In this document: piece by piece, positions 2,589-50,375 of the stretch
Numbering within the stretch: the first letter of the stretch is position 1
How the letters are laid out: each line of letters begins with the position of its first letter
Assembly: GCA_049317285.1 (NCBI GenBank)
Contig: JBMOIO010000005.1
Span: 1 to 55,702, forward strand
Source of the DNA: Minisyncoccia bacterium
Lineage (GTDB): Bacteria > Patescibacteriota > Minisyncoccia > Phycocordibacterales > UBA9973
Reading direction: 5' to 3'
DNA length: 55,702 bases
Translations under genes and position numbers: made by a program
Notes under the pieces: model-generated
Database searches by the model: none
What the model was told of the DNA's origin: nothing
What the model saw: the letters and a program-made list of their open reading frames with translations, nothing else

Positions 2589-2903
2589 ATGAGCAAAAAA
2601 CGTATTGGATTACTCATTGCATTAATCCGAAAGAATAGCGGTATAAAACAGGGTGACTTCGCAAAAAGTCTTGAAATCACACAGCCGTATTTATCACAAG
2701 TTGAAAAAGGTATAAAAGAACCGAGTAATACCTTACTTCAAAAAATTTCTGAGAAACTTGAAGTTCCTGCAGCATTTATTCATCTCCTTTCAATTGAAAA
2801 AGAGGAGGTACGAGAAGATCGTAGAATGGCATGGGAAATGCTTACTCCTGTTATTAAACAATTATGTATTTCTATTTTTCCTGAAAAATTACAAAGTGCT
2901 TGA
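2589..2903 (+). CDS. XRE-family helix-turn-helix regulator
   Basis: IRKNSGIKQGDFAKSLEITQPYLSQVEKGIKEPS HTH_3 pattern. Confidence 0.9.
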   Translation: MSKKRIGLLIALIRKNSGIKQGDFAKSLEITQPYLSQVEKGIKEPSNTLLQKISEKLEVPAAFIHLLSIEKEEVREDRRMAWEMLTPVIKQLCISIFPEKLQSA

Positions 2904-2945
2904 CCTTATTCCTTCTGCCTAGTTTAGGTGGAGGGAATTTTTATT

Positions 2946-3132
2946 TACCCGACAGGGAATCTCTCCCTCGCCTCTCAATTCGCCAGTCGCTCATTTCGGG
3001 CTGGGCACCAGCTCAGTAGATTTCTCTGCTAAGAAATCATACTTCCGCTGTTCTCGTCCCTACGCAGGCAAAGCAATTTGCCTGCTGTCGGGTAGCAATG
3101 AAAAAACACCCGAAGGTGTTTTTTCATTGCTA
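2946..3132. repeat. tRNA-Gln 3'-end mirror structure (direct copy, spacer, interrupted inverted copy, hairpin)
   Basis: TACCCGACAGGGA 2946-2958 equals 8848-8860. GTTCTCGTCCCT[25-nt insert]GTCGGGTAGCAA 3050-3098 matches the tRNA T-arm/acceptor. Hairpin at 3093-3132. Confidence 0.8.
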
Positions 3133-3162
3133 GCCGTATGGGACGATGTAAGAAACCTGATA

Positions 3163-3195
3163 TTGACATATTGATAATAAAACGTATTATCAATA
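3163..3195 (+). promoter_or_regulatory. sigma70-like promoter overlapped by an 11-bp inverted repeat (operator-like)
   Basis: TTGACA 3163-3168, TATTAT 3185-3190; TATTGATAATA-aaacg-TATTATCAATA 3169-3195. Confidence 0.55.
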
Positions 3196-3207
3196 AAAAA
3201 TTAAATC

Positions 3208-3477
3208 ATGGCATTACTACGAAAAAACAGCATTCCCTATTGGGAAGAAAAGTTAAAGGCAGAAGAAATTAAATTCGGCGGAGATGAAAAAAATATAGTT
3301 GTGTATGTCGACAAAAGAGACGAGGAAGGACATCACGAGCTTAAGTTAACTATTGCCAAAATTGGGCGGAAGATCTTAATGTATCTCACAGGAATGGGAG
3401 GTATTGATACTAAAGGTAAGAGCAATGAGGAAATCTTTGGACAATTCATTTCATACAGATCAGTATTTTTCTCTTAA
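3208..3477 (+). CDS. hypothetical protein (cassette cargo)
   Basis: 89-aa ORF with its own promoter and a downstream hairpin (3495-3524). Confidence 0.65.
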   Translation: MALLRKNSIPYWEEKLKAEEIKFGGDEKNIVVYVDKRDEEGHHELKLTIAKIGRKILMYLTGMGGIDTKGKSNEEIFGQFISYRSVFFS

Positions 3478-3560
3478 CAACATTTTATTTTTTTGACCTC
3501 TGAGCTAATTACTTAGAGGTTTTTCTATTGCTAGCAGTGTGGGACGATATTAGAACTGTA

Positions 3561-4493
3561 TTACTGACTAAATAATCCTAAAAACCGCTTCTTAACAAGC
3601 TTTGAAATTGGGAACTTTTCGGATTTAAAAACCTTTATCTTTTCTTCTTGATTTTGATAATCCTCTATAAATCTATCAAAATCTAATGCTCCGCCATATA
3701 AACCAACTGTTTTATGTTTACTATCAATTGGCAATTTCCCAACCAGTTTAAACCTATCAACGAAATGAAGCAGGTCAACGTGGTCAACACCTAAAACACT
3801 CAGAGTAATGTCCAACTGCTTTGCATGTGAAGTAACCCATTTGTCGTACGCTTCAATTCCTTGTTCTTGCATTACTTTCATTGACTCATCAAAATTATAA
3901 CTTCCAGATGAAGGAACTTTTTTTCCTATTATTTCACACTTCTTTAAGTCTGAAATAGCAGGCTTTTTCAAGCTCTTATATGTTGTAGGTGTAAGATAAT
4001 AAGTACAACGCCCTTTATGTTGAATAATGTTTATTAAAATACATGCATAATAAAAATCATTATCACCCTTAAATGTTAAAGCATCGTCTATTTGAAAGAT
4101 AAAGTTTTTTACGGTTGTATATTTTTTTCTTTTTCGTATTTGTGATTTAGGGGTAGATATTTTAGTTAATAACTTTTCTAAATTTCTTTTTCGTGTATGA
4201 GCCTCTTTTTCTCCGGCTTCTTCATTCCACATTTTAACTCCAGCACCCTTTTGAATAATGTCTCTTACTTCAGATAAAATAGACTCTGTAAGAAAGCCTG
4301 TTTCCCAGAGTGCTAAAGCATAGGTGGTAATAAAAATTTCAATTTCTTCGTCACCAATCGCCTCATTGCGTGATTGCTCAATTTTTTCTTTTATAGTTTC
4401 TATAGGAGTTCCTGTATCATAAAGCTCCATGAATTCATTATAAATGTCATGGGCAAAATCACTGTCTATAATTTTTGTACCATCAATTGCCAT
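3561..4493 (-). CDS. hypothetical protein (element cargo)
   Basis: 310-aa AT-rich ORF, apparently co-transcribed with 4503-5105. Confidence 0.8.
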   Translation of the reverse strand: MAIDGTKIIDSDFAHDIYNEFMELYDTGTPIETIKEKIEQSRNEAIGDEEIEIFITTYALALWETGFLTESILSEVRDIIQKGAGVKMWNEEAGEKEAHTRKRNLEKLLTKISTPKSQIRKRKKYTTVKNFIFQIDDALTFKGDNDFYYACILINIIQHKGRCTYYLTPTTYKSLKKPAISDLKKCEIIGKKVPSSGSYNFDESMKVMQEQGIEAYDKWVTSHAKQLDITLSVLGVDHVDLLHFVDRFKLVGKLPIDSKHKTVGLYGGALDFDRFIEDYQNQEEKIKVFKSEKFPISKLVKKRFLGLFSQ

Positions 4494-4502
4494 ATACTGA
4501 TT

Positions 4503-5105
4503 TTATTCTCTGATACCTTCCGACCCTTTTAAGTCTATTTGCGAAGATAGTGATTTTAATATTGATGATCGGTATTCTACATCCTTTTCTGAAAGTTCAA
4601 CTTTATTATTAAGGATATCGATTATTAGGAATATTTCAAAATACTCATTTTCATAAAAATATTCTGTCTCAGAAGAATCTTGATCTAAAAATTGTCTATC
4701 ATTAAATAATTTAAATCTAATAGGCTCGCTATCTAGATTTGAACAATCTCCCTCCATCGCAACAGAGGTCATAGACAATTCATTCGCCATCACCATATCC
4801 GCTTGTTCATATCCGTATTCTTTAGAAAGAAATACGAGAAAATCATTACTTCTCTTTCCTTGTGATTTAAAGATTACTCCGTTCGGTGTGGCTACCACTG
4901 TTGGTTTACCATTCTCATCAAATGTTACTTTTGAAGTTTTATCTTGAACAATGATGCGGAATCCTATATCCCGTTCCGAAAGAATTACATCTAATATAGT
5001 CTTACCATTTTCAAATGAAACATTTTTTATAGAAAGACTAATGTCTGCAAATTCAACTTCAGAAGCTGATTTAGATTTTTTATTGGATTTAAAAAAGTTA
5101 AACAT
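4503..5105 (-). CDS. hypothetical protein (element cargo)
   Basis: 200-aa acidic ORF starting MFNFFK. Confidence 0.8.
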   Translation of the reverse strand: MFNFFKSNKKSKSASEVEFADISLSIKNVSFENGKTILDVILSERDIGFRIIVQDKTSKVTFDENGKPTVVATPNGVIFKSQGKRSNDFLVFLSKEYGYEQADMVMANELSMTSVAMEGDCSNLDSEPIRFKLFNDRQFLDQDSSETEYFYENEYFEIFLIIDILNNKVELSEKDVEYRSSILKSLSSQIDLKGSEGIRE

Positions 5106-5179
5106 ATTGCAATATTAGCATTTTAGAATTTCAGTTCCTAACTTGACCACAATAGAACATTAGCCACCCATGGAAATAA

Positions 5180-5260
5180 CCAGTCCGTCCGACGCTCCTC
5201 CGCAATACGGGGTCCCCATACAGTCTCGAAGAGCTGTATGGGGTTGCGGGGACGGGCTGG
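5180..5260. other. GC-rich nested stem-loop, candidate single-strand origin or structured RNA
   Basis: CCAGTCCGTCC/GGACGGGCTGG, CCGCAA/TTGCGG, CCCCATACAG/CTGTATGGGG, CTC-GAA-GAG tip. Confidence 0.5.
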
Positions 5261-5298
5261 GTATTTGACATATCTTTGAATAATGATTAAATGCGTAA

Positions 5299-6159
5299 AT
5301 GACCCCAAAAGATCAGTCCATGCTTAATACTCTTAATCTCCTCGTGATGCTCTCACGATCTACAAAACAGTTAGCTTTTGGTATTCCGGAAGAAGATAAA
5401 TACATACTCACAGTAACAAAGCAAAATCTCATCGATTCTGATCTTACGCTCCCTGAATTTACCAATACTTTGAACACTCTCGCTAAGAAAGGTTACGTCT
5501 GGCACATGGTATTTCATGATGAGAATCTACGCTCTCAGATAAACAATTTAAAAAATAGTGGACAACATGATCAAATTAAAACTGCACTTGAAAAATTAGA
5601 GGAAAAAGGTTTTTCAGATAAGCTTAACGAAGCATCTATTAAGCATTTCGGCGAACTAATTCCAAAAAATATTGATTTTGACTACAGTGATATTAATGAC
5701 GATAATCAAACCGCTACAGAAGCATTCAACGGTGGCTTAGAGATATATAGTAAAATGAAACCAGACGATATTGGCTTAGTTCTGTTACTGCCTTTTAGAG
5801 ACATAGAAATTCTTTTCAATAAGATTAATGACGGTAAAAAATTTGAAGAAATTCAGGATGATGGTTATTGGTATGACCCAATTAAATATGAATTTCACAT
5901 TGATGGGAAAACTATAAAGACAAGCAATCGTGGTTTCCCTAATCTTGTTCATTTCGTACTCTCAGCTATTTTTAATAATCCTAATGCTACAAAAATTGAT
6001 TATGAAGAAATAGCAGGTTTTGATTCCACTAAAGGTAATAAACCATATCGGGACGCAATGATAAAATTTATTAATAAACATCCAAAGCTTAAACAAATGT
6101 TTTCTGTTCATCTATATCATATTGAGTTTAACTCCGAAAAATACAACGACACGCAATAA
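5299..6159 (+). CDS. hypothetical protein, first gene of the Rep-recombinase run
   Basis: 286-aa ORF with TTGACA at 5265; no capsid-like basic N-terminus. Confidence 0.8.
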   Translation: MTPKDQSMLNTLNLLVMLSRSTKQLAFGIPEEDKYILTVTKQNLIDSDLTLPEFTNTLNTLAKKGYVWHMVFHDENLRSQINNLKNSGQHDQIKTALEKLEEKGFSDKLNEASIKHFGELIPKNIDFDYSDINDDNQTATEAFNGGLEIYSKMKPDDIGLVLLLPFRDIEILFNKINDGKKFEEIQDDGYWYDPIKYEFHIDGKTIKTSNRGFPNLVHFVLSAIFNNPNATKIDYEEIAGFDSTKGNKPYRDAMIKFINKHPKLKQMFSVHLYHIEFNSEKYNDTQ

Positions 6160-6201
6160 GTTGGTCAACTATGCGCAACTCTGATTTTCTATGATCTAGA
6201 G

Positions 6202-6417
6202 GTGAGCATATTTAGTAACAATTTAATACAAGAATACCAAGCAGAAATGCAGATTTCTTATGGTGTTACTATTGCCGACACTGAAGCTCAAATTCAGCTA
6301 TTAGCTTTAACTAGCAGTATGTTTCCAATAACTACTAAGGGTTCAAAGGTTGGACCGAGGGTCGGGGCTAGTATTACCCCGACTTCGGGACAACTTAACT
6401 CTTTTAACTATCAATAA
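6202..6417 (+). CDS. small hypothetical protein upstream of Rep (possible regulator or directionality factor)
   Basis: 71 aa; stop lies 2 nt before the Rep ATG; its 3' part overlaps the ori hairpin. Confidence 0.55.
   Translation: MSIFSNNLIQEYQAEMQISYGVTIADTEAQIQLLALTSSMFPITTKGSKVGPRVGASITPTSGQLNSFNYQ
6355..6388 (+). other. rolling-circle origin stem-loop with nonanucleotide TAGTATTAC
   Basis: GTCGGGG(6361-67)-CTAGTATTA-CCCCGAC(6377-83), extended by CCGA/TCGG; TAGTATTAC at 6369-6377. Confidence 0.9.
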
Positions 6418-6419
6418 CT

Positions 6420-7358
6420 ATGAGCGATACACCTAATAAAAGTCATAGATATTGTTTTACAATTCACAACTATACAAAGGTTGAATTGAAAAATTTTCAT
6501 AAACTCGCAGAAGCCTTAGAAAAGCATCGCTATATTTCTTATGGTTTGGAAATTGCCCCTGAAAACAAAACTCCTCATATACAAGGATACGTGGAATTAA
6601 AAACAGCACAGCGCTATAGTTTTCTTCACAACTATTTTAATTTCAAAAGAAAAAAAGAAGTTCTGAAATTTCATGTTGAAATTGCTAATGGTACAGCAGA
6701 AGATAATAAGAAATACAATTCTAAAGATGGAGAGTTCTTTGAATTTGGCGAATCTACTACACAAGGAACACGCACTGATTTAAAAGTAATAAAGGAAGCT
6801 GTTAAAGCAAATCCTAAAAATCTAAAAGGTACGATTGATGAACACGGAAACAACTATCAACAAATAAAATTTGCTGAATCTCTAACAAAATATTATTTAG
6901 AAAACAGAGACCCTTCAGCACCTCCTATTGTTTATTGGATATACGGATCACCTGGTATAGGAAAAACCAGAATGATCTATAGAAATTTTAAAGATGTATG
7001 TCCCGTGTCTTCTTATAATTGGTTAGGTACAGATTACGCTCAAAATGAATGTTTTCTCTTAGACGATTTTAGAAGAGATGATCTTCCATTTAATACGGTA
7101 TTAAAAATTACTGATCGTTATCCTTTTACCTTGGAATTTAAGGGTAGTCAGATACCATTGAACTCACCGTATATTATTTTCACTTCTCCTAAATCAATAG
7201 AAGAAACTTACCATTTCTCTGGTGAGGATATTAAACAGTTACACCGTAGAATCATACAAATACACATTACAGATGAAAGTGAGGCAGAAAATATTGACCT
7301 AAAGAATTTAGATCCGAAATATATTCACAAAGCCGTCAATGATTACAACCAAGAGTAG
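6420..7358 (+). CDS. rep: CRESS/circovirus-like replication initiator (HUH endonuclease + SF3 helicase)
   Basis: Motif I CFTIHN, II PHIQG, III YNSK, QGTRTDL linker, Walker A GSPGIGKT, Walker B LLDDF, motif C IFTS, Arg finger LHRRI. Confidence 0.93.
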   Translation: MSDTPNKSHRYCFTIHNYTKVELKNFHKLAEALEKHRYISYGLEIAPENKTPHIQGYVELKTAQRYSFLHNYFNFKRKKEVLKFHVEIANGTAEDNKKYNSKDGEFFEFGESTTQGTRTDLKVIKEAVKANPKNLKGTIDEHGNNYQQIKFAESLTKYYLENRDPSAPPIVYWIYGSPGIGKTRMIYRNFKDVCPVSSYNWLGTDYAQNECFLLDDFRRDDLPFNTVLKITDRYPFTLEFKGSQIPLNSPYIIFTSPKSIEETYHFSGEDIKQLHRRIIQIHITDESEAENIDLKNLDPKYIHKAVNDYNQE

Positions 7359-7361
7359 TTT

Positions 7362-8906
7362 ATGCATAATACGAAAGCAATGACTAAATACGTCCTATAC
7401 GCCCGAAAATCTTCCGAGAGTGAAGATAGACAGGTTAAATCACTAGACGACCAAGAAACTGAAATGCTCACTATAGCCAAGCGTGAGGGCTTAGAGATAG
7501 TGCAAATAATCAGAGAATCCCACTCAGCGAAAACAACCAAAGAAAGACCAGAATTCAACAACATGATAAAAGGGATTCAGTCTGGAAAATTCACAGCGAT
7601 ACTTACATGGGCACCTGATCGTATTTCTCGAAATGCGGGAGATTTAGGTATCGTGATTGATTTGATGGACGCTGGAAAACTAGAGTGTATTAAAACCTTT
7701 TCTCAAACGTTCCATAATGACCCCTATAGTAAGTTTATGTTCCTAATGTTAGGTTCTCAAGCCAAACTAGAAAATGATCAGAAGAGTTTAAACGTGAAGC
7801 GTGGAAATAGAGAAAAACTAAAACGTGGCGAATGGGTTAACGGTGCTCCTTTTGGATACCTTAACGACAAGGTTAACAAAACAATAATTAAAGATCCGAA
7901 ACAGGCTCCGTATGTTTATAAGATGTTTGAAATGTATTCAACTGGGCTATTCAGCTTTAAACAAATATCCGAAAAATTATATGAGCAAGGTTTACGGACT
8001 AACTCAAATAAAAAGATATATAAAGGATCAATTCACAGAATAATTAATCGAACCTTCTATTATGGCTTGATGGTTTCAGACGGAAAATATTATCAAGGCA
8101 ATCACGAACAAATTGTTTCTCAACAACTGTTTGAAAAATGCCAAGAATTATCTGGAAACAAAACTCGTCCTCGAGCTAAGACGAAAGGCTTTACGCTTTC
8201 AGGATTTATGAATTGTGATAAATGTGGGTGTGCTATCACCGCTGAAATTAAGAAAGGTAAATATATCTACTATCACTGTACTTCAGGCAAAGGGACTTGT
8301 GATCAAAAATCTTTAAACACAAGAGAAGAAGATATACACGACTATATCGCTAAAGATATGGAGAAGTTATATATCAATCAAAAGATTGTAGATATTGTAT
8401 ATAAAGCGAAACTTGAAGAATTACAGCAAAACGGAGAGTTCCATAATCACAGCCTAGACACTACTCGTGAAGCTCTAAAATCGCTCGTACTGCGTAAATC
8501 TCGGTTAGTAGACACATTTACTAATGGCGACATAGAAGAAGCCTTATACAAAGAGAAATTACTATCTTTAGAGAATGAAAAAGTTAGCCTTACCAAACAA
8601 GTAGCCGATATTGAACAAAATAATCCTGACCCGTATGCAACTATCGAACTCATCTATAATGAATTTAAGCAAGGAAATACAATGGCGAAACGCTATAGAG
8701 ATGCTTCACCAGACGAAAAGAGAATAATACTCTCAAATTCACTATCGAACTTTACCCTCAAGGATAGAAATAACTTTAAGTTACAATACAAAACTCCTTA
8801 TAGTGTGTTCGCAAATACACCCGTAAATGTATCTTTTTCAGACTTGCTACCCGACAGGGACTCGAACCCCAATTATCTGGACCAAAACCAGGTGTCCTAC
8901 CATTAG
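7362..8906 (+). CDS. large serine recombinase (resolvase, recombinase, Zn-ribbon and coiled-coil domains)
   Basis: YARKSSESEDRQ, RPEF, DRISRN, APFGY, CDKCG..YYHC..C; the last 18 aa are antisense tRNA-Gln. Confidence 0.95.
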   Translation: MHNTKAMTKYVLYARKSSESEDRQVKSLDDQETEMLTIAKREGLEIVQIIRESHSAKTTKERPEFNNMIKGIQSGKFTAILTWAPDRISRNAGDLGIVIDLMDAGKLECIKTFSQTFHNDPYSKFMFLMLGSQAKLENDQKSLNVKRGNREKLKRGEWVNGAPFGYLNDKVNKTIIKDPKQAPYVYKMFEMYSTGLFSFKQISEKLYEQGLRTNSNKKIYKGSIHRIINRTFYYGLMVSDGKYYQGNHEQIVSQQLFEKCQELSGNKTRPRAKTKGFTLSGFMNCDKCGCAITAEIKKGKYIYYHCTSGKGTCDQKSLNTREEDIHDYIAKDMEKLYINQKIVDIVYKAKLEELQQNGEFHNHSLDTTREALKSLVLRKSRLVDTFTNGDIEEALYKEKLLSLENEKVSLTKQVADIEQNNPDPYATIELIYNEFKQGNTMAKRYRDASPDEKRIILSNSLSNFTLKDRNNFKLQYKTPYSVFANTPVNVSFSDLLPDRDSNPNYLDQNQVSYH

Positions 8907-8917
8907 ACGATCGGGTA
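8847..8917 (-). tRNA. tRNA-Gln(TTG)
   Basis: TACCCGATCGTCTAATGGTAGGACACCTGGTTTTGGTCCAGATAATTGGGGTTCGAGTCCCTGTCGGGTAG. Confidence 0.95.
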
Positions 8918-19202: not shown

Positions 19203-19285
19203 GCCAGTGTGGCGGAATGGTAGACGCGATCGACTCAAAATCGATTACTCGTAAGGGTGTGGAGGTTCGAGTCCTCTCTCTGGCA
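19203..19285 (+). tRNA. tRNA-Leu(CAA)
   Basis: GCCAGTGTGGCGGAATGGTAGACGCG ATCGA-CTCAAAA-TCGAT, long variable arm, GGTTCGAGTCC. Confidence 0.95.
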
Positions 19286-19491
19286 CAAATATAAAAAACC
19301 TCTTCGGAGGTTTTTTATATTTGTGCGAGGACTCGAACGGGAAAGGGGTCGGGAAAACGGGAGTTTTCCCGTGGCGGAGGCAGTGACCAGAGGGAACGTT
19401 GGAACCGCTGGGTTCCAAAGCGCAGGCTCCAGCCGAGCAGTGAGATTCCTCTTTTGTATGGTTAGTAACTTGTGACAGAGTCCTTCTCTCC
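19283..19491. repeat. tRNA-Leu 3'-end mirror structure
   Basis: 20-bp TTCG hairpin 19283-19326; inverted T-arm copy GAGGACTCGAAC 19327-19338; hairpin-rich spacer; degenerate direct copy GAGTCCTTCTCTC from 19478. Confidence 0.65.
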
Positions 19492-44864: not shown

Positions 44865-45620
44865 TTATTTATTTCGGCTGTATTCGTACAATACCACTGA
44901 GGCTGCAACTGATGCGTTGAGTGACTCGCACCCGGGCTCCATGGGGATAGTGAGCTTTACATCACAGAGCTCGAGCGTTTTTTCGCGGATGCCGGTAGAC
45001 TCGTTGCCAACGACAATGAGCGTCCCTCCGTCAAACTCGGCGTCTTTGAGTGTTGTGTCCCCGTCCATGACTAGGCCGTAGCTCCACATGCGCTTAGTAG
45101 CGAGTGCACGCATGGTCTGGTTTACATTTCCGATACGGACTATGGGGATGCGAAATACCATGCCAGCTGAAGTTTTTATTACTACACCAGTAATAGGCGC
45201 TTGGTTGTGCTCGGGCATTAACACTGCGTGTGCGCCAAATGCTGCAGCACTGCGGATGATTGCACCGACATTGTGCGGGTCTTGCAGTTCGTCCAAAAGG
45301 ACAAAGCACGGAGCAGGCACCGTATCAAAAATTTTCATCATGTCCTCCATTGAGGTGTAGAGCTTTTCAGTGTTAATGACCGCAATCACGCCTTGGTGCA
45401 CTGCGTCGTTGCCCACCTGCTTTTTTGCATCGTCGCCTTTCATACTACTGACCGCGATTGCGTGCTGCTTCAAGAGCCCCATCAGCTCTTTATCGCTCTC
45501 AGCGTTCTGGTCGAGAAAAACTTTCTGCACCGAAAGCGGGCGCGTCAACAGCGCCTCGCGAAGCGCGTGCTTGCCGTAGAGATAGATTTTTTCGTCCCGA
45601 ATAGGGCCTTTTGATTTCAT
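44865..45620 (-). CDS. rlmB: TrmH/RlmB-family SPOUT RNA methyltransferase
   Basis: HQGV, DPHNVGAIIRSA, GNESTG, SLNASVA. Confidence 0.88.
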   Translation of the reverse strand: MKSKGPIRDEKIYLYGKHALREALLTRPLSVQKVFLDQNAESDKELMGLLKQHAIAVSSMKGDDAKKQVGNDAVHQGVIAVINTEKLYTSMEDMMKIFDTVPAPCFVLLDELQDPHNVGAIIRSAAAFGAHAVLMPEHNQAPITGVVIKTSAGMVFRIPIVRIGNVNQTMRALATKRMWSYGLVMDGDTTLKDAEFDGGTLIVVGNESTGIREKTLELCDVKLTIPMEPGCESLNASVAASVVLYEYSRNK

Positions 45621-45665
45621 ACCGCCATAGTACAGCAGATAGAGTATTCAGTAAACCAGAGAAGA

Positions 45666-46199
45666 TTATGGCTGGACAATATCCCCCTTTCCTTCGACAG
45701 TGATAATCACTTTTTTTACTGTCGGAAACTGCAATAGTGTTTGTGTTATCTGAGACTCAATAAACTGCCCGGCGCACAAGCCTACATTTTTATTATTAAG
45801 TTCCTTGCTAAAGTCCACGCTCGCCACGCCATTTACAATAGAGAGTGAGTTGATTGTTGTGTTGGGAACAATGGAAGTCTGAAAGCCTTGTGCAATATCT
45901 TCCCCAGTAAGTCCTTTAATCAATTCGTTCAGCGAGGCTTCTCCTACAGCGAGCGTATACGGAACACTGCGTGTAATCGGGTGCACAACAGAGCAATCCA
46001 TGAACCCCGGGTCCTTTATTCCATTTGCAAAATATACCTTCACTACAAGGTCTTCCTTTTGAGTGGTGTTGTTTGGAGTTTCAGGTGTTTCAGTTACAGG
46101 CGTAACCAGAGGGGCCGGTTCTTTTTTCATTGCAAAAATAGCAAGAGCGCCGAATAGTGCCAAAGCAAGCATGGTAAGGAGTATCGTTTTGGTATTCAT
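45666..46199 (-). CDS. GerMN-domain protein
   Basis: N-terminal TM, LNELIKG, GVASVDFS, QITQTLLQFPTVKKV. Confidence 0.85.
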   Translation of the reverse strand: MNTKTILLTMLALALFGALAIFAMKKEPAPLVTPVTETPETPNNTTQKEDLVVKVYFANGIKDPGFMDCSVVHPITRSVPYTLAVGEASLNELIKGLTGEDIAQGFQTSIVPNTTINSLSIVNGVASVDFSKELNNKNVGLCAGQFIESQITQTLLQFPTVKKVIITVEGKGDIVQP

Positions 46200-46382
46200 A
46201 GAGTAAGTATACCCCGTAGCACGCTATTTGTTCCCTTTCGATACATTGACAAATACATAATAATATGTTAATATACTATCAAACTTGTGGGGTAAAAAGG
46301 TGCCACATAAAAGCTAGGAATAGCACTCTGCGATTAAAAGCACAGGAACACGCCTTCTTCATTCATTAATAAAAGAATAACA

Positions 46383-47240
46383 ATGAAAAATCTTGAAAAG
46401 AAGATTAAAAAGTATGCATTTACAATTTTTGCAATCACTGAAGTATTATTACTGGGATGCGCGCTTTGGCTTGCAGGAACTCAAAAAATTTGGATTCCCC
46501 TTCTTGCCTTCTCAACACTACTTCTCTTTGCTACCCCTGTAGGGAAAAAATTGTTTTCTTCCTCTAATAACATAGCTGCGTTTAATGTCGCTATTACAGG
46601 TCCGGTATGTATTGGTTTGCTAAGTACTCTGTATCAGTTTTGGAGCACACCTGTCTTGCCCGGCGTAACACTTGGACCTTTCGTGGTATGGGCAATACTC
46701 TGTATCGCCTGCATCGTAGGGCTAGCATTCCTTGCTAGCAGAGCACTAAGCTATATAAGAACCTCCCGACTCAGAAAGAGAAACGAGCGAGAACTGGCAA
46801 AACAGCAGCGTGAAGCTGAAGAACGGGCATATGCCGAACGGATTAAAAGAGAAAATCTTATCTTTGCAATTAAAGAAAAAGGTGGCTCACCCTCATGGAA
46901 AGATGTTCTTTCTCTTATGTCCTGCATAGCGCACAAAAATGAAGACTGGAACTATGTTATTGAAGCAGCTCAATTCACTTCCCCTGAGCAATTGGTAACC
47001 ATATCGGTAATCAAAAAAACAATCACTTGGAATGGGTATGCTGAATTAATGCTGGAGTACATAGAAAGGGTATTTGTGCAGTCCTATGATGATACAGTAT
47101 TGGAAAAAATACGGACTCAGATGCAGTACTTTTTTGAAAAAATCGAACAATACGATTCATTCAAAGGTGCAGACAAATTACTAGAAGAAGTAAAAAGGCG
47201 TTGTCCAAAAGCATTCTCGACATTAGTTGAAAATGCGTAA
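46383..47240 (+). CDS. hypothetical membrane protein
   Basis: Four TMs plus coiled coil; TTGACA at 46246; hairpin at about 47248-47275. Confidence 0.7.
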   Translation: MKNLEKKIKKYAFTIFAITEVLLLGCALWLAGTQKIWIPLLAFSTLLLFATPVGKKLFSSSNNIAAFNVAITGPVCIGLLSTLYQFWSTPVLPGVTLGPFVVWAILCIACIVGLAFLASRALSYIRTSRLRKRNERELAKQQREAEERAYAERIKRENLIFAIKEKGGSPSWKDVLSLMSCIAHKNEDWNYVIEAAQFTSPEQLVTISVIKKTITWNGYAELMLEYIERVFVQSYDDTVLEKIRTQMQYFFEKIEQYDSFKGADKLLEEVKRRCPKAFSTLVENA

Positions 47241-47348
47241 TTTATTCAGACCTTGGGGTATACCCCAAGGTCTTTTTTGTTTTCGGTTTTTAGAGTAGGA
47301 TTTGCTTCTCCCTCGTTCCTCGGTCGAAGTGCGCTGTTTTTATACACC

Positions 47349-47537
47349 TGTGCGCCGAGCGATTTGGTCACGAGTTACTAAGTGTGCTCACCTATCGGTT
47401 CCGCGCACTAAGTACTCTCGACCCCGCCTCGCCTGCCTACGGCCAGGGCTGCGGCTTTCAAATCCTGACGCAAGCAAAGCAGTTTGCTTGCTCTCGGCGC
47501 ACAATAATAAAAACCCCATTTCTGGGATTTTTATTAT
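47349..47537. repeat. tRNA-Tyr 3'-end mirror structure
   Basis: Direct copy TGTGCGCCGAGC 47349-47360; inverted copy TTCAAATCCTG[25-nt insert]CTCGGCGCACA 47457-47503; hairpin running up to the tRNA. Confidence 0.8.
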
Positions 47538-47539
47538 TG

Positions 47540-47622
47540 TGCGCCGAGCAGGATTTGAACCTGCGTAGCCCGAAGGCGTCAGATTTACAGTCTGATGTAA
47601 TTGACCACTCTACCATCGACGC
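47540..47622 (-). tRNA. tRNA-Tyr(GTA)
   Basis: GCGTCGATGGTAGAGTGGTCAATTACA TCAGA-CTGTAAA-TCTGA ...GCAGGTTCAAATCCTGCTCGGCGCA. Confidence 0.95.
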
Positions 47623-47660
47623 GTATCGCCGGCTTAATAAATAATACCGGCAGAAGTCTC

Positions 47661-50375
47661 TTAGGAAACCGTGGTTTCTGTCTGAGTCTTGAAAGAACTA
47701 GTCCGTTTTTTCTTCTTGGCTTCAACAGTAACAAGAATGTTCTCTGCGTCTGCCATAGAAACGGATACCGTGTCACCCGAATCAATAGTTCGGTTAATGA
47801 TACGCTCAGCGATAGGGTTCAGAATTTTGGTCTGAATCAATCGGTTGAGGGGGCGAGCCCCGTAGTGAGGATTATACCCGACACGTGCCAAGTATGAAAG
47901 CGCTTCATCACTGACAGCGACCGTAATGCCTTTTTCGCTCAGGCGAGCAAGGACCACTTCGGTGCGCAAGGCAACAATTGATTTGATAGCCTCGGGACTG
48001 AGGATATCAAATACTACCGTTTCGTCAATACGATTGAGGAATTCAGGGCGGAAGTGGTCTTTCAACGCATCCTGCACCTTATCCTTCATGTGCGTGTATT
48101 CGCTCTCGGCAGTGTTGTTGTGAAAGCCGATTGACTCCATTTTTTGAATGTACTGGCTTCCGATGTTCGAGGTCATCACGATGATTGAGTTCTTGAAGTT
48201 TACGACACGACCCTTTGAGTCCGTGAGGCGTCCGTCGTCGAGCACCTGCAAGAGCACATTGAATACTTCTGGGTGCGCCTTTTCAATTTCGTCGAAAAGA
48301 ATCACAGAGTACGGTCGGTGGCGGACCGCTTCAGTGAGCTGCCCGCTCTCGTCATGCCCGATATAGCCCGGTGGTGAACCAATAAGCTTCGACACGCTGT
48401 GGCGCTCCATGTACTCACTCATGTCTACACGAATCAATGCTTTCTCATCGTTGAACATAAATGCGGCGAGCGCTTTGGTGAGCTCGGTCTTCCCTACCCC
48501 TGTTGGACCAAGGAAAAGGAATGAGCCAATCGGGCGGTTTGGGTCGCTGATGCCGGCACGGTTTCGGCGGACAACGTGCGCAATCTTGTCGATTGCTTCG
48601 TTTTGTCCGACAACACGCTTGTGCAGTTCAGCGCTCATGTTCACGAGTTTCTCGCGCTCTTCTTCAAGCATTTTTGTTAGCGGTACACCAGTCCATCGCG
48701 CTACTACTTCTGCAATATCTTCCTGTGTGATTTCTTCTTTGAGAACACGGCGCACTTTTTGCAGCTTTTTCAAGCGCAACATCTTTGCTTCGAAGTCTTT
48801 CTGGAGCATAGGGATATGCCCGTAGCGGATTTCAGCCGCACGACCGAGGTCGGCGCGCTGTTCGGCACCCTCAGCTTCGAGGCGAAGCGTCTCAAGGTCT
48901 TTCTTGATCTTGCCGATATCCTGCAATAACCCCTTTTCATTCTTCCATTTTGTTTCGAGCTCTTTTGTTTTTTCTTGCGAATCCGCAATTTCTGCATCAA
49001 TTGCCTTAATACGCGAGGTCGCGTTTTTTACATCAATATCTTTCTCTACATCTTTTTTCAATGCTTCTTTTTCTATTTCAAGACGCATGATTTTGCGGTG
49101 GGCTTCTTCAAGCACAGCCGGCTTGTTTTCAAGCGCCATGCGAAGTGCACTGCATGCTTCGTCAAGCAAGTCGATCGCCTTGTCCGGCAAAAAGCGGTTC
49201 GTAATATAGCGGGTTGAAAAGTTTACTGCCGCAACAATAGCATCGTCAGTAATGTGCACACCGTGATACAACTCGTACTTTTCTTTTAGTCCGCGAAGTA
49301 TTGCGATTGCATCCACTTGCGACGGCTCTTCGATATACACTGGTTGGAAACGACGCGCGAGTGCCGGGTCCTTTTCAATATGCTTTTGGTATTCCTTCAA
49401 AGTTGTCGCACCGATTGCGCGAAGCTCACCGCGCGCGAGTGCGGGCTTGAGCATATTGGACATGTCCATCGCCCCGTCGCCCCCTCCTCCAGCTCCCACC
49501 ATAGTGTGGATTTCATCGATAAACAAAATCACCTTGCCGTCGAGGCGCTCCACTTCTTTCAAAATATTTTTTACGCGCTCTTCAAATTCACCGCGGTATT
49601 TTGTCCCAGCGATTAAGAGCCCAATATCAAGAGAAACAATTTCCTTGTCCTTCAATGACTCCGACACGTCACCTTTAGCAATGCGGTTTGCAAGCCCTTC
49701 GACAACAGCGGTCTTCCCCGTTCCTGCTTCACCTAATAAAAGTGGGTTGTTTTTTGTACGGCGAGAAAGGATCTGCATGATACGCATGATCTCGGTGTCG
49801 CGCCCAATCACCGGGTCGAGCTTGTCTTCGCGAGCAAGCTTGGTGAGATTGCGCGTAAACTTGGTAAGCATGCGCATTTTCTTGTCCCCTCCTGTTACCT
49901 TTGTTTTATCGTTGCGAAATTCCATAATTGCCTCAACGAGAGCGGCTCGGTCAATGCGAAAACCAGCCAAAAGCTCAGTGGTTTGGTTTTTGATATCCAA
50001 AAGGGCGAGGAAGAGGTGCTCGGTTGAAACAAAAGTATCCTTCAAATCTGTCGCCGCTTTCAACGAGTGCTCGATTACTTGGGCCAAGTCGGCGGTAAGA
50101 AACATTTGGTACGATGGCGCGACTGTTGTAGACCCCTCGACGGTTTCGATGGTCTCTAGTACAGAGTCGGTCATGAGCATGGTGTCTACTTCGAGGCTAT
50201 CGAGAAGCGCGATGACATTTGATTCTTCCTGGACAAGCAATGACGCCAAAAGGTGCATCGTGCTGACATTGTTTTGCCCCCGCTCAATAGCGAGCTCATG
50301 CGCCCGCTTGATCGCCTCCTTTGCTTTCGTGGTGAATTGTTTTAGTGGTGGCATAGATGATTCAAAATTACTCAT
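47661..50375 (-). CDS. clpB: ClpB-type AAA+ chaperone
   Basis: DPVIGR, two Walker A motifs ([16 protein letters not shown]), long coiled-coil middle domain. Confidence 0.92.

Follow-up and report, generated by a model that had tools for sequence, protein, structure and literature searches.

Organization of the tRNA-Gln and tRNA-Tyr loci

The window analyzed here is a 55,702-nt stretch of contig JBMOIO010000005.1, one of the ten contigs of a 652-kb Minisyncoccia genome. It contains two related non-coding elements, element A with arms matching tRNA-Gln and element B with arms matching tRNA-Tyr, each with a 25-nt hairpin set within an inverted copy of a tRNA 3' end, together with a third element behind tRNA-Leu. 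The features are as follows.

2946-2958 (+): element A, copy 1; reverse complement of the tRNA-Gln(ttg) tail, forming the 5' strand of the closing stem
2959-3050 (+): element A, type I core, with TCTCCCTCGCCTCTC, CGGGCTGGGCACCAGCTC, a hairpin and CTTCCGCTG in that order; helices backed by covariation among 14 members
3051-3061 (+): element A, 5' part of copy 2; T-loop-like TTCTCGT, then tRNA-Gln T-stem 3' positions 61-64
3062-3086 (+): hairpin A, ACGCAGGCAAAGCAATTTGCCTGCT; 9-bp stem, GCAA loop, flanked by linkers AC (5') and T (3')
3087-3097 (+): element A, 3' part of copy 2; position 65, acceptor 3' strand, discriminator and two trailer nucleotides of tRNA-Gln(ttg), 11/11 identical
3098-3127 (no strand): two-way terminator-like hairpin, flanked by an A-run and a T-run
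3128-3146 (-): probable decayed tRNA-Gln tail remnant, a former gene end
3147-8845 (no strand): 5.7-kb island, ending in the large serine recombinase ORF 7362-8906 (+)
8846-8917 (-): tRNA-Gln(ttg), into whose 3' end the recombinase ORF runs
19203-19286 (+): tRNA-Leu(caa)
19322-19491 (-): third element of the same architecture, without the hairpin; copy 1 at 19478-19491, copy 2 at 19322-19337 (missing six tail nucleotides), terminator at 19288-19321
47296-47342 (+): older type V element, of which a truncated 5' part is present; begins with the reverse complement (taggatttg) of the tRNA-Tyr T-stem and T-loop
47349-47366 (+): element B, copy 1; reverse complement of the tRNA-Tyr tail, exact over the 11-nt acceptor part and 2 nt shorter in the T-stem part
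47367-47456 (+): element B, type II core, with GGTCACGAGTTACTAAG, CTAAGTACTCTCGACCCCGCCTCGC, a hairpin and GGCTGCGGC in that order; helices backed by covariation among 16 members
47457-47467 (+): element B, 5' part of copy 2; T-loop and T-stem 3' positions 54-64 of tRNA-Tyr, 11/11
47468-47492 (+): hairpin B, ACGCAAGCAAAGCAGTTTGCTTGCT; 9-bp stem, GCAG loop
47493-47503 (+): element B, 3' part of copy 2; tRNA-Tyr positions 65-73 and two trailer nucleotides, 11/11
47504-47537 (no strand): two-way terminator common to element B and tRNA-Tyr
47540-47622 (-): tRNA-Tyr(gta), the convergent gene and source of the copied tail

The initial annotation reported the two hairpins, and both are present exactly as it described: they are identical at 22 of 25 positions, a compensatory change at positions 6 and 21 replaces a G:C pair with A:T, and position 15 turns the GCAA loop of hairpin A into the GCAG of hairpin B. 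In each, the 9-bp stem and 4-nt loop form within the minimum-energy fold of the surroundings, and the fold-back stem made by the two tail copies is obtained both as RNA and as DNA. A degenerate pattern allowing up to three mismatches finds only these two sites in the window and nothing in 100 shuffles, so chance can be rejected; with up to six substitutions allowed, A and B are still the only matches across all ten contigs. All five hairpins within tail copies in this genome have 9-bp stems. Neither A nor B has the form of an intrinsic terminator, with gtcggg and ctcggc respectively, rather than a U-run, following directly and separate terminators located 11 nt further on.

Both hairpins lie between tRNA positions 64 and 65, as reported, and their flanks are tRNA tails. 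At site A, ttctcgtccct (3051-3061) and gtcgggtagca (3087-3097) match the tRNA-Gln(ttg) tail, ttcgagtccct followed by gtcgggtagca, at 9/11 and 11/11 positions; at site B, ttcaaatcctg (47457-47467) and ctcggcgcaca (47493-47503) are both exact matches to the tRNA-Tyr tail. One correction concerns the neighboring genes: site B directly adjoins the convergent tRNA-Tyr, but site A is 5.7 kb away from tRNA-Gln(ttg) and adjoins only the decayed remnant at 3128-3146. The 13 nt of element A copy 1 recur at 8848-8860 inside the real tRNA-Gln gene, and copy 1 and the gene tail are thus direct repeats. The remnant is probably what remained after the island at 3147-8845 inserted into tRNA-Gln, and this later, 5.7-kb serine-recombinase island would have displaced element A from the gene. 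At the tRNA-Tyr locus, the type V core at 47296-47342 is 88-92% identical to sequences at four other places in the genome. Genes neighboring elements A and B include those for an HTH protein and ClpB, and the only good sigma-70-like site, at 3163-3190, belongs to the gene next to element A rather than to the element.

Architecture of the elements and position of the hairpin

The elements are approximately 130-200 nt long, contain no open reading frame, and are situated at the 3' ends of tRNA and tmRNA genes. On the element strand the order is a tRNA tail copy, a conserved core, an inverted tail copy split by the hairpin, a spacer or terminator, and then the real convergent tRNA gene, which is intact. 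The copied tail comprises the T-stem 3' strand, the acceptor 3' strand, the discriminator and a few trailer bases; the first (direct) copy appears on the element strand as the reverse complement of the gene tail, and a T-loop-like segment precedes the inverted copy. In the predicted fold the two copies pair to form a stem that reproduces, within one strand, the double-stranded end of the target gene, and the hairpin branches from it at the T-stem/acceptor boundary to give a three-way junction.

Sixty-one relatives yielded 47 distinct hairpin sites in 24 genomes, and a reversed-pattern control yielded none. A convergent tRNA whose tail is copied by the hairpin flanks lies within 150 nt at 32 of the 47, and in most of them copy 1 is located approximately 75-130 nt upstream and can include up to 10 trailer bases. 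Genome-wide scatter, which the initial annotation had named as the contrary pattern, was not seen: the hairpin falls between positions 65 and 66 at 13 and between 64 and 65 at 10 of the 26 scorable sites, a fixed register at 23 of 26. A scan of public genomes gave 125 sites, 84 of them lying no more than 200 nt from a convergent tRNA or tmRNA gene. The hairpin stem consists of 9 bp of free but complementary sequence, with the outer three pairs being Watson-Crick at 118 of the 125 sites in 18 different combinations, and the apex GCAAAGCAGTTTGC, with its GCAG loop, is nearly invariant. The cores covary as well, with compensatory changes in 17 of 27 predicted pairs of type I and 19 of 28 of type II.

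The arms copy the gene tail, in that they carry the Watson-Crick complement of the tRNA 3' strand rather than the tRNA 5' strand at 31 of 31 informative positions (15 from sites with a single non-Watson-Crick pair, and 16 from three tRNAs, L118, L134 and L139, for which the annotated start is probably wrong by one position). Whole-tRNA duplication giving a pseudo-tRNA is rejected as the origin of the arms, since the 5' arm does not carry the 5' acceptor strand, wobble pairs included, of the tRNA itself. The inverted arm has a mosaic composition, with an element-derived T-loop-like piece, target positions 61 to 64 or 65, the element hairpin, and target positions 65 or 66 to 76, and the TTCTCGY variant of the T-loop-like piece recurs at eight sites with different tRNAs.

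The initial annotation took the hairpin to be a conserved structured module placed, or selected, relative to tRNA T-arms. Conservation, structure and a fixed register to the T-stem/acceptor boundary are upheld, but the hairpin is not inserted by itself. The reading of the initial annotation, in which a specific mechanism places the 25-nt hairpin on its own into mirror copies of tRNA 3' ends that were already there, would account for the target-derived bases on both of its sides, for hairpin-less elements and bare inverted tail copies, and for the different hairpins of 21-29 nt that occupy the same junction at three loci. We nevertheless regard it as highly improbable. The hairpin always accompanies a direct tail copy, a covarying core and an inverted tail copy, and was never seen within a direct tail copy or a real tRNA. 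Its distance to the core is constant, the loop starting 17-18 nt after the end of the type II core in 46 of 68 cases, and of 76 type II cores, chosen largely by the hairpin motif itself, 68 are followed by a hairpin, the first of which has a GCAG loop in 61; by our count, the GCAG loop is also found, on different stems, at 13 of the 22 cores without the consensus motif. The hairpin goes with the core subfamily, being present in types I-IV and VI and absent from type V. In some relatives a GCAG-loop hairpin directly after the core has A and T runs, no tRNA-tail flanks, and doubles as a terminator. The hairpin is not a free-standing insert but an integral arm of an element located at tRNA and tmRNA 3' ends.

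Distribution and turnover

Of 401 genomes of the class, 102 contain the hairpin 14-mer, against approximately 20 control matches in total by our count; it is also found in records titled Saccharibacteria, Elusimicrobia and Muribaculaceae. In the Elusimicrobia- and Muribaculaceae-titled records the core is related to cores in Patescibacteria records and the arms match the records' own tRNAs. Across the public genomes scanned, the targets are genes of all 20 tRNA specificities plus tmRNA, and the 652-kb genome studied here has at least ten elements. Three loci in viral contigs match a hairpin pattern specified at 19 bases; none has complementary outer stems or tRNA-like flanks, and we therefore consider these to be chance matches.

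Comparison of 24 congeners with 300 nt of flank at tRNA-Tyr shows, by our reading, no element in 13 and differing contents in 11. Elements are stacked at this site, with type II followed by type V in G002 and a truncated type V followed by type II in the genome studied here, and two congeners (L049 and L062) have bare inverted tail copies without a core. Elsewhere, exact tandem units of 165 and 158 nt are present at two loci, decayed copies are numerous, and there is one plain direct repeat of the tRNA-Phe tail. The mirror copies are not simply pre-tRNA trailers; they belong, as arms, to an element subject to gain, loss, stacking and duplication.

The core-less copies in L049 and L062, the many decayed copies and the plain tRNA-Phe repeat could be accommodated if the elements were passive debris with no activity of their own, a mixture of old integration leftovers and palindromic extensions of tRNA terminators made by fold-back repair. 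This is very unlikely, as covarying cores are common to several phyla, the hairpin apex is nearly invariant while its outer stems stay complementary, and the 14-mer is found far beyond the control matches; the taxonomic spread also argues against very recent common descent as the source of core conservation.

Folding and the possibility of an RNA product

The folds are much more stable than those of shuffled sequences on both strands (z -7.5 to -12). Wobble pairs have no strand preference, G:T being about as frequent as A:C on the element strand when counted by eye; one conserved terminal U:G pair in type I is an exception. The covariance model for tRNA (RF00005) recovers the seven true tRNAs of the window with cmscan but gives no match at 2880-3210 or 47240-47540 on either strand at E-values up to 10, and no Rfam 15 family reaches its gathering score on either strand in these two regions or in three other elements of the genome. 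Permissive Rfam E-values return terminator-like and microRNA-like noise only. A metatranscriptome run (X11), belonging to the study that probably supplied the source sample, gave three low-depth contigs of this organism over 45500-49500, all within neighboring protein genes; the lack of contigs on element B or tRNA-Tyr is uninformative, since a small structured RNA is not expected to yield contigs.

These properties bear on models in which the elements are genes for structured small RNAs, each matched to one tRNA, with the hairpin serving as a protein-binding or tertiary-contact arm. Such an RNA could be tRNA-like, produced when transcription from the tRNA promoter reads through and then trimmed by the enzymes that mature tRNAs, or could act as a decoy or antisense of the tRNA tail. 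The covarying core helices, the stability of the folds on both strands, and the conservation of cores and hairpin apex across a class and beyond are all consistent with an RNA product. On the tRNA-sense strand, moreover, the element ends in a true tRNA tail and the hairpin occupies exactly the branch point of the D and anticodon arms on the acceptor/T-stem stack. Two loci have no terminator between tRNA and element, such that read-through must presumably transcribe the element there. We nonetheless consider an RNA function rather unlikely. Presence varies among congeners at the same tRNA, with stacked, truncated and tandem copies; a promoter scan finds no sigma-70-like promoter upstream of either element A or element B; a strong two-way terminator lies between tRNA and element at most loci; the tRNA model fails on both strands; and the wobble pairs, counted by eye, lack any strand bias. 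We note that the strong conservation of the core across phyla would also fit a functional RNA.

Candidate enzymes

The genome has no match to a Y1 transposase (RAYT, PF01797), Cas1 or an IS110 transposase, and its reverse transcriptase genes are on contigs C2 and C10, none adjoining elements in the window, unlike the arrangement of retron, group II intron or DGR RNAs. Large serine recombinase genes are abundant (eight), and seven of these extend directly into a tRNA gene's 3' end; one of the islands entered tRNA-Gln exactly where element A had been. In addition, type V elements flank a partial tRNA-Lys copy, and a tyrosine integrase gene is located between this copy and tRNA-Lys. These arrangements raise the possibility that the elements are miniature non-autonomous riders of tRNA-targeting island recombinases, either serine or phage-type, with arms and hairpin constituting att sites. 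However, our cross-tabulation over 61 relatives shows no co-occurrence, resolvase-family genes being present in 14 of 24 hairpin-bearing and 23 of 37 hairpin-less genomes, and four near-complete genomes with 3-5 hairpin sites (G049, G041, G053 and G039, 99-100% complete) have no resolvase match and one Xer-like tyrosine recombinase. Serine recombinase sites neither need nor create long direct or inverted repeats, and the long repeats here are thus a further difficulty; the rider model is quite unlikely. No end sequences common to the elements and the tRNA-tail islands of the genome, whether with serine or tyrosine recombinases, were seen. The lack of co-occurrence speaks against serine recombinases as mobilizers, and a dedicated tyrosine integrase likewise shows no co-occurrence with the hairpin over the 61 relatives. 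A Xer-like enzyme is present in 58 of the 61; most relatives, among them genomes with 3-5 hairpin sites, have just one Xer-like PF00589 gene.

A proposed model for insertion and comparison with known systems

The elements constitute a widespread and apparently undescribed family of small, gene-less, folded elements located behind tRNA genes. We found no description of such elements in the full-text literature searched, and supplementary tables of the motif catalogues PMC8040213 and 10.64898/2026.10.21.760802 may list overlapping motifs.

We tentatively favor a model, which we consider possible but short of probable, in which each is a non-autonomous insertion element whose fold-back stem mimics the target and whose hairpin is a recognition handle. 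The element would move as a folded single strand or a small circle, host enzymes would carry out the movement, and recombination within the tail sequence would generate the order of tail copy, core, inverted copy, spacer and gene. The hairpin would be recognized by a trans-acting factor or through a tertiary contact, and may mark the strand and the position within the stem, by analogy with the bulged stems of the CTX-phage attP(+) and integron attC. Tail recombination explains the direct repeat, but it does not explain why both arms match the new tRNA upon a change of target or phylum, and we know of no recombinase that produces a mosaic inverted arm of this kind. Xer enzymes are sequence-specific for dif, whereas the targets of the elements differ in sequence, which counts against a Xer route. 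A more specific proposal seems to us somewhat doubtful: that these are cross-phylum, gene-less, self-folding elements that on landing acquire the local tRNA or tmRNA tail twice, once in direct and once in inverted orientation, by a target-templated insertion without described precedent that uses host enzymes alone and takes the 9-bp GCAG hairpin at the T-stem/acceptor boundary as its invariant handle.

The elements resemble tRNA- and tmRNA-associated integrative elements and their integrase-less derivatives (CIMEs) in their location at the gene 3' end, in leaving the gene intact with a flanking direct tail repeat that starts in or next to the T-loop, and in serial insertions that stack outward and leave old tail copies. 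Sublocations of such integration sites, the T-loop among them, reportedly follow a scheme set out by Williams in 2002. Unlike integrative elements, however, those described here are only 130-200 nt long, have no integrase inside, nearby or co-occurring, and add an inverted tail copy and a covarying core; moreover, an att site is specific to one target, whereas a single core family here serves 20 tRNA specificities and tmRNA. The CTX phage (an IMEX) is closer in geometry. Val and colleagues are said to have found in 2005 that its folded single-stranded attP(+) hairpin is recombined by host XerCD at dif. In both systems two inverted target copies pair in one strand to imitate a double-stranded target, the stem is irregular, and no element-borne recombinase is needed, the Xer-like enzyme in 58 of the 61 relatives being the counterpart here; but the CTX target is dif rather than many tRNA tails, and the irregularity is a bulge rather than a 25-nt hairpin. 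With integron attC sites the elements share the conservation of structure over sequence, protruding features that set strand and register, and a folded single strand as the active form, although for the elements this last property is presumed. They differ from attC in that there is no integron integrase and the arms are copies of the neighboring gene.

Among small repeats, REP/REPIN, Correia and RPE sequences are likewise non-coding, hairpin-forming, intergenic, often terminators, and present in many copies per genome. The arms of the elements differ at each site and match the local tRNA, in contrast to the constant terminal repeats of REP/REPIN sequences and MITEs, and, unlike REP/REPIN sequences, the elements are tied strictly to tRNA and tmRNA tails in a genome with no RAYT/Y1 transposase match. 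Casposons insert at the 3' end of tRNA genes. They also duplicate the insertion target (PMC5137440). Casposons, however, are large elements that encode a polymerase along with Cas1 and whose terminal inverted repeats are fixed; no Cas1 was found in the genome studied here. The tRNA-like domains of tmRNA and YrlA have a similar acceptor-like helix ending in a tRNA tail, with a branch at the acceptor/T stack; the elements, in contrast, have no T-arm, no tRNA, tmRNA or Rfam match, and a 5' strand that is the exact complement of the tail.

The elements account for a visible share of the non-coding DNA in these tiny genomes and are missed by both standard annotation and Rfam. If they are moved by host enzymes only, they would represent a new mechanism of DNA homing to tRNA genes that operates across phyla, and if retargeting copies the local tRNA tail, this could offer a route to programmable insertion. 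If instead they encode RNAs matched one-to-one to tRNAs, they would add a new layer to tRNA biology in Patescibacteria. The nearly invariant 14-mer provides a simple marker for finding elements in other genomes. We also observe that the elements break assemblies at tRNA loci.

Two hairpins in inverted tRNA tails

The observation in the initial annotation of two hairpins lodged within tRNA-tail flanks stands. As had been claimed, the hairpins are identical at 22 of 25 positions, with positions 6 and 21 forming a G:C pair in one copy and an A:T pair in the other, and with a loop of either GCAA or GCAG. A degenerate pattern permitting up to three mismatches finds only these two in the window (0 of 100 shuffles gave a match), and with up to six substitutions they are still the sole matches in the 651,795-base, 10-contig genome. 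The claimed tail flanks were confirmed at site B as exact copies of tRNA-Tyr (positions 54-64 on one side, 65-73 and two trailer bases on the other), and the tRNA-Tyr gene itself (47540-47622, minus strand) is the convergent neighbor; at site A, 9 of 11 bases of one flank and 11 of 11 of the other are identical to tRNA-Gln(ttg). The features of the two elements are as follows.

2946-2958, plus strand: copy1 of element A, reverse complement of the tRNA tail
3062-3086, plus strand: hairpin A, 25 nt, GCAA loop
47349-47366, plus strand: copy1 of element B, reverse complement of the tRNA tail
47468-47492, plus strand: hairpin B, 25 nt, GCAG loop

Each hairpin is situated inside a non-coding stretch of about 150 nt that is predicted to fold into a closed multi-helix structure, at -80.9 kcal/mol for element A (z -8.45) and -85.5 kcal/mol for element B (z -7.46), with 0 of 200 shuffles equally stable in either case; the fold of element B is unchanged under DNA parameters. 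On the plus strand, copy1 is followed by a core and then by a T-loop-like piece joined to 3' bases of the T-stem. Next come the hairpin, the 3' strand of the acceptor together with the discriminator and trailer, and a two-way terminator, beyond which the real tRNA lies at site B. In the predicted fold copy1 pairs with the inverted copy split by the hairpin (copy2), and the hairpin would thus form the third arm of a three-way junction, with linkers AC on its 5' side and T on its 3' side. Read on the tRNA-sense strand, it occupies the place where the tRNA body leaves the acceptor/T stack. No Rfam family matched the elements on either strand, even at E values up to 10.

Register and covariation in related genomes

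The 25-mer pattern at up to three mismatches gave 48 matches, collapsing to 47 distinct sites, in 24 of 61 related genomes (none with the reversed control), and the stems covary freely among them. At 32 of the 47 sites there is a convergent tRNA within 150 nt whose tail is copied by the flanks, and at least 15 tRNA specificities are represented. Register was scored for the 26 sites at which 15 or more of the 19 flank bases matched, and the hairpin lies between tRNA positions 65 and 66 in 13 of these, between 64 and 65 in 10, and elsewhere in three. At eight further sites the sequences flanking the hairpin are not from a tRNA and pair mutually, and in five of them a tRNA is 11-12 nt away. At loci of tRNA-Val (L089), tRNA-His (L180), and tRNA-Leu (L003), an unrelated hairpin of 21-29 nt is lodged at the point where the inverted tail copy passes from its T-stem part to its acceptor part.

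The cores fall by eye into at least six sequence types (element A is type I and element B type II), and compensatory changes back 17 of 27 predicted pairs in the type I core and 19 of 28 in type II. The hairpin stem is constant at 9 bp, as is the distance between core and hairpin; almost no variation is seen in the five inner pairs or the loop, the outer pairs covary, and the GCAG loop is retained on entirely different stems and where the hairpin also acts as a terminator. Such conservation suggests that the apex is recognized in a sequence-specific manner, with the stem as a rigid scaffold.

One possible model is a structured RNA gene matched to its tRNA, with which the stable fold and the compensated core pairs are compatible; scanning found no sigma-70-like promoter upstream of either window copy, and a count of wobble pairs by eye favored neither strand. 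We rank this model second and regard it as rather unlikely. The reading that we favor, tentatively, is a non-autonomous insertion element in which the fold-back stem would mimic its tRNA-tail target and the hairpin would serve as a recognition handle. No mechanism known to us would account for the retargeting of the arms.

Composition of the arms

Copy1 may extend over about 10 trailer bases at most and lacks CCA, which argues that the gene rather than the mature tRNA is copied. At positions where the tRNA acceptor stem has a non-Watson-Crick pair the arm is the complement of the 3' strand in 31 of 31 cases, 15 of them from sites with a single such pair and 16 from three tRNAs in which the start was probably called one position off; we therefore reject duplication of a tRNA as the source of the arms. 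The T-loop-like piece appears to be the element's own, and a TTCTCGY variant of it is present at eight sites beside different tRNAs that have normal loops of their own. Copy2 is thus a mosaic in which element and target alternate, starting with the element, and the hairpin is the second of the two element parts.

Further copies in the same genome

The strict 25-mer pattern overlooks several copies of the same architecture. Type II cores with wholly altered hairpin stems that keep 9 bp and the GCAG loop are located behind tRNA-Gly(tcc) on contig C2, behind tRNA-Val(gac) on C9, and directly behind a tmRNA gene on C7. This gene (C7:17025-17411, minus strand; positions 326-712 of extracted locus L211) scores 106.9 bits with Rfam and was missed by the whole-genome ARAGORN run. 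Type V elements, which have no hairpin, are found behind tRNA-Arg(tct) and at two more places on C2, and a mini element is located behind tRNA-Thr. Seven GCAG-loop hairpins with a stem of at least 8 pairs occur genome-wide, and all four of these with a 9-bp stem sit in copies of tRNA or tmRNA tails. Site A, with its GCAA loop, brings the 9-bp tail-copy hairpins to five. Two additional features are in the window.

19322-19491, minus strand: third element, without hairpin, behind tRNA-Leu(caa), its inverted copy lacking 6 nt of the tail
47296-47342, plus strand: truncated type V core fragment immediately upstream of element B

The core of this fragment is 88-92% identical at C2:119137, C2:119217, C2:124172, and C8:19315, and the DNA contigs of run X1, the likely source sample, end at it.

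Wider distribution

The exact apex GCAAAGNAGTTTGC, in which N is nearly always C, is present in 102 of 401 genomes drawn evenly across the class (81 of 283 genera), with about 190 real matches against about 20 for the reversed control, as counted on the listing. Scanning one genome per species with ACGNNNGCAAAGCAGTTTGCNNNCT gave at least 119 loci and at least 125 sites. Among the 125 sites listed, the three outer pairs are all Watson-Crick in 118, a T-loop-like 5' flank is present in 97, a convergent tRNA or tmRNA gene lies within 200 nt in 84 (all 20 amino-acid specificities and tmRNA being represented), and both flanks fit the tail of that gene in 39 under a strict test of at most one mismatch each.

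The titles of the 80 loci listed comprise 20 Saccharibacteria, 45 other Patescibacteria lineages, five unclassified, seven Elusimicrobia, and one each of Muribaculaceae, Campylobacterales, and Burkholderiales; these are titles of metagenome bins and may be wrong, but the contigs of several Elusimicrobia loci have lengths of 35-213 kb. The seven Elusimicrobia copies and the Muribaculaceae copy, a tandem pair, lie behind tRNA genes and have the full architecture, hairpin included, with arms fitting their own tRNAs (L083, L084, L102, L111, L121, L126, L133, and L149), and the core subfamily that they carry is also present in two relatives and in records bearing the titles Saccharibacteria, Lloydbacteria, Niyogibacteria, and Colwellbacteria. 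No tRNA-like flanks are present at the Campylobacterales locus. The family may thus extend beyond Patescibacteria, provided that the bins are clean. We found no description of such elements in the literature searchable as full text.

Candidate enzymes

The genome encodes no Y1 transposase, Cas1, or IS110 transposase, and its reverse transcriptases are on contigs other than that of the window. Of the 61 relatives, 58 have PF00589, in most cases as a single Xer-like gene, and this includes genomes with 3-5 hairpin sites. The 652-kb genome has eight large serine recombinase genes, seven of which abut a tRNA 3' end.

7362-8906, plus strand: serine recombinase ORF in the window, at tRNA-Gln (8846-8917, minus strand)
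C3:109666-111246, C6:35928-37466, C7:4908-6485: other tRNA-abutting serine recombinases
C8:17358-19229, C9:7419-9104, C10:13005-14615: other tRNA-abutting serine recombinases

These seven genes enter the tRNA 3' ends without a terminator, their open frames extending into the tRNA antisense, and resemble a family of island integrases that has diversified and targets tRNA genes. Our cross-tabulation of the 61 relatives revealed no association of large serine recombinases with the hairpin (14 of 24 genomes with it, 23 of 37 without).

Gain, loss, and displacement

We examined 29 tRNA-Tyr loci of the genus and scored by reading the 24 relatives for which 300 nt of flank was available. The flank has only a terminator or gene in 13 of these and varied contents in 11, of which two have a type II core with hairpin, two have a type II core with a GCAG-loop terminator at its end, and the rest have bare inverted tails or other cores. 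The closest relative, with 87% flank identity, differs in its tRNA-Tyr arrangement: in G002 the order is type II with hairpin and terminator, tail copy, type V with terminator, and tRNA-Tyr, the types being reversed relative to the genome studied here. Two loci contain exact tandem repeats, with units of 165 and 158 nt that run from the tail copy through the core and the split inverted copy to the spacer.

Site A likewise belongs with a tRNA. The remnant of an old tRNA-Gln tail lies beside its terminator.

3128-3146, minus strand: decayed tRNA-Gln tail, adjoining the terminator of site A

The 13 bases of element A copy1 are found again, exactly, within the real tRNA-Gln(ttg) gene at 8848-8860. 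The 5.7 kb between element A and this gene ends in the large serine recombinase gene that runs into the tRNA-Gln 3' end, and we interpret this stretch as an island that inserted into tRNA-Gln later on and shifted element A and the old tail outward.

A different arrangement is seen at C2:119290-121290, which resembles a classical mini island with a partial tRNA-Lys(ttt) 3'-half copy, a tyrosine integrase gene (C2:120251-120763, minus strand), and the real tRNA-Lys (121213-121286), and two type V elements are located at its outer end. At C9:17040-17130 the last 22 nt of tRNA-Phe recur as a simple direct repeat, 45 nt from the gene tail, with neither core nor inverted copy.
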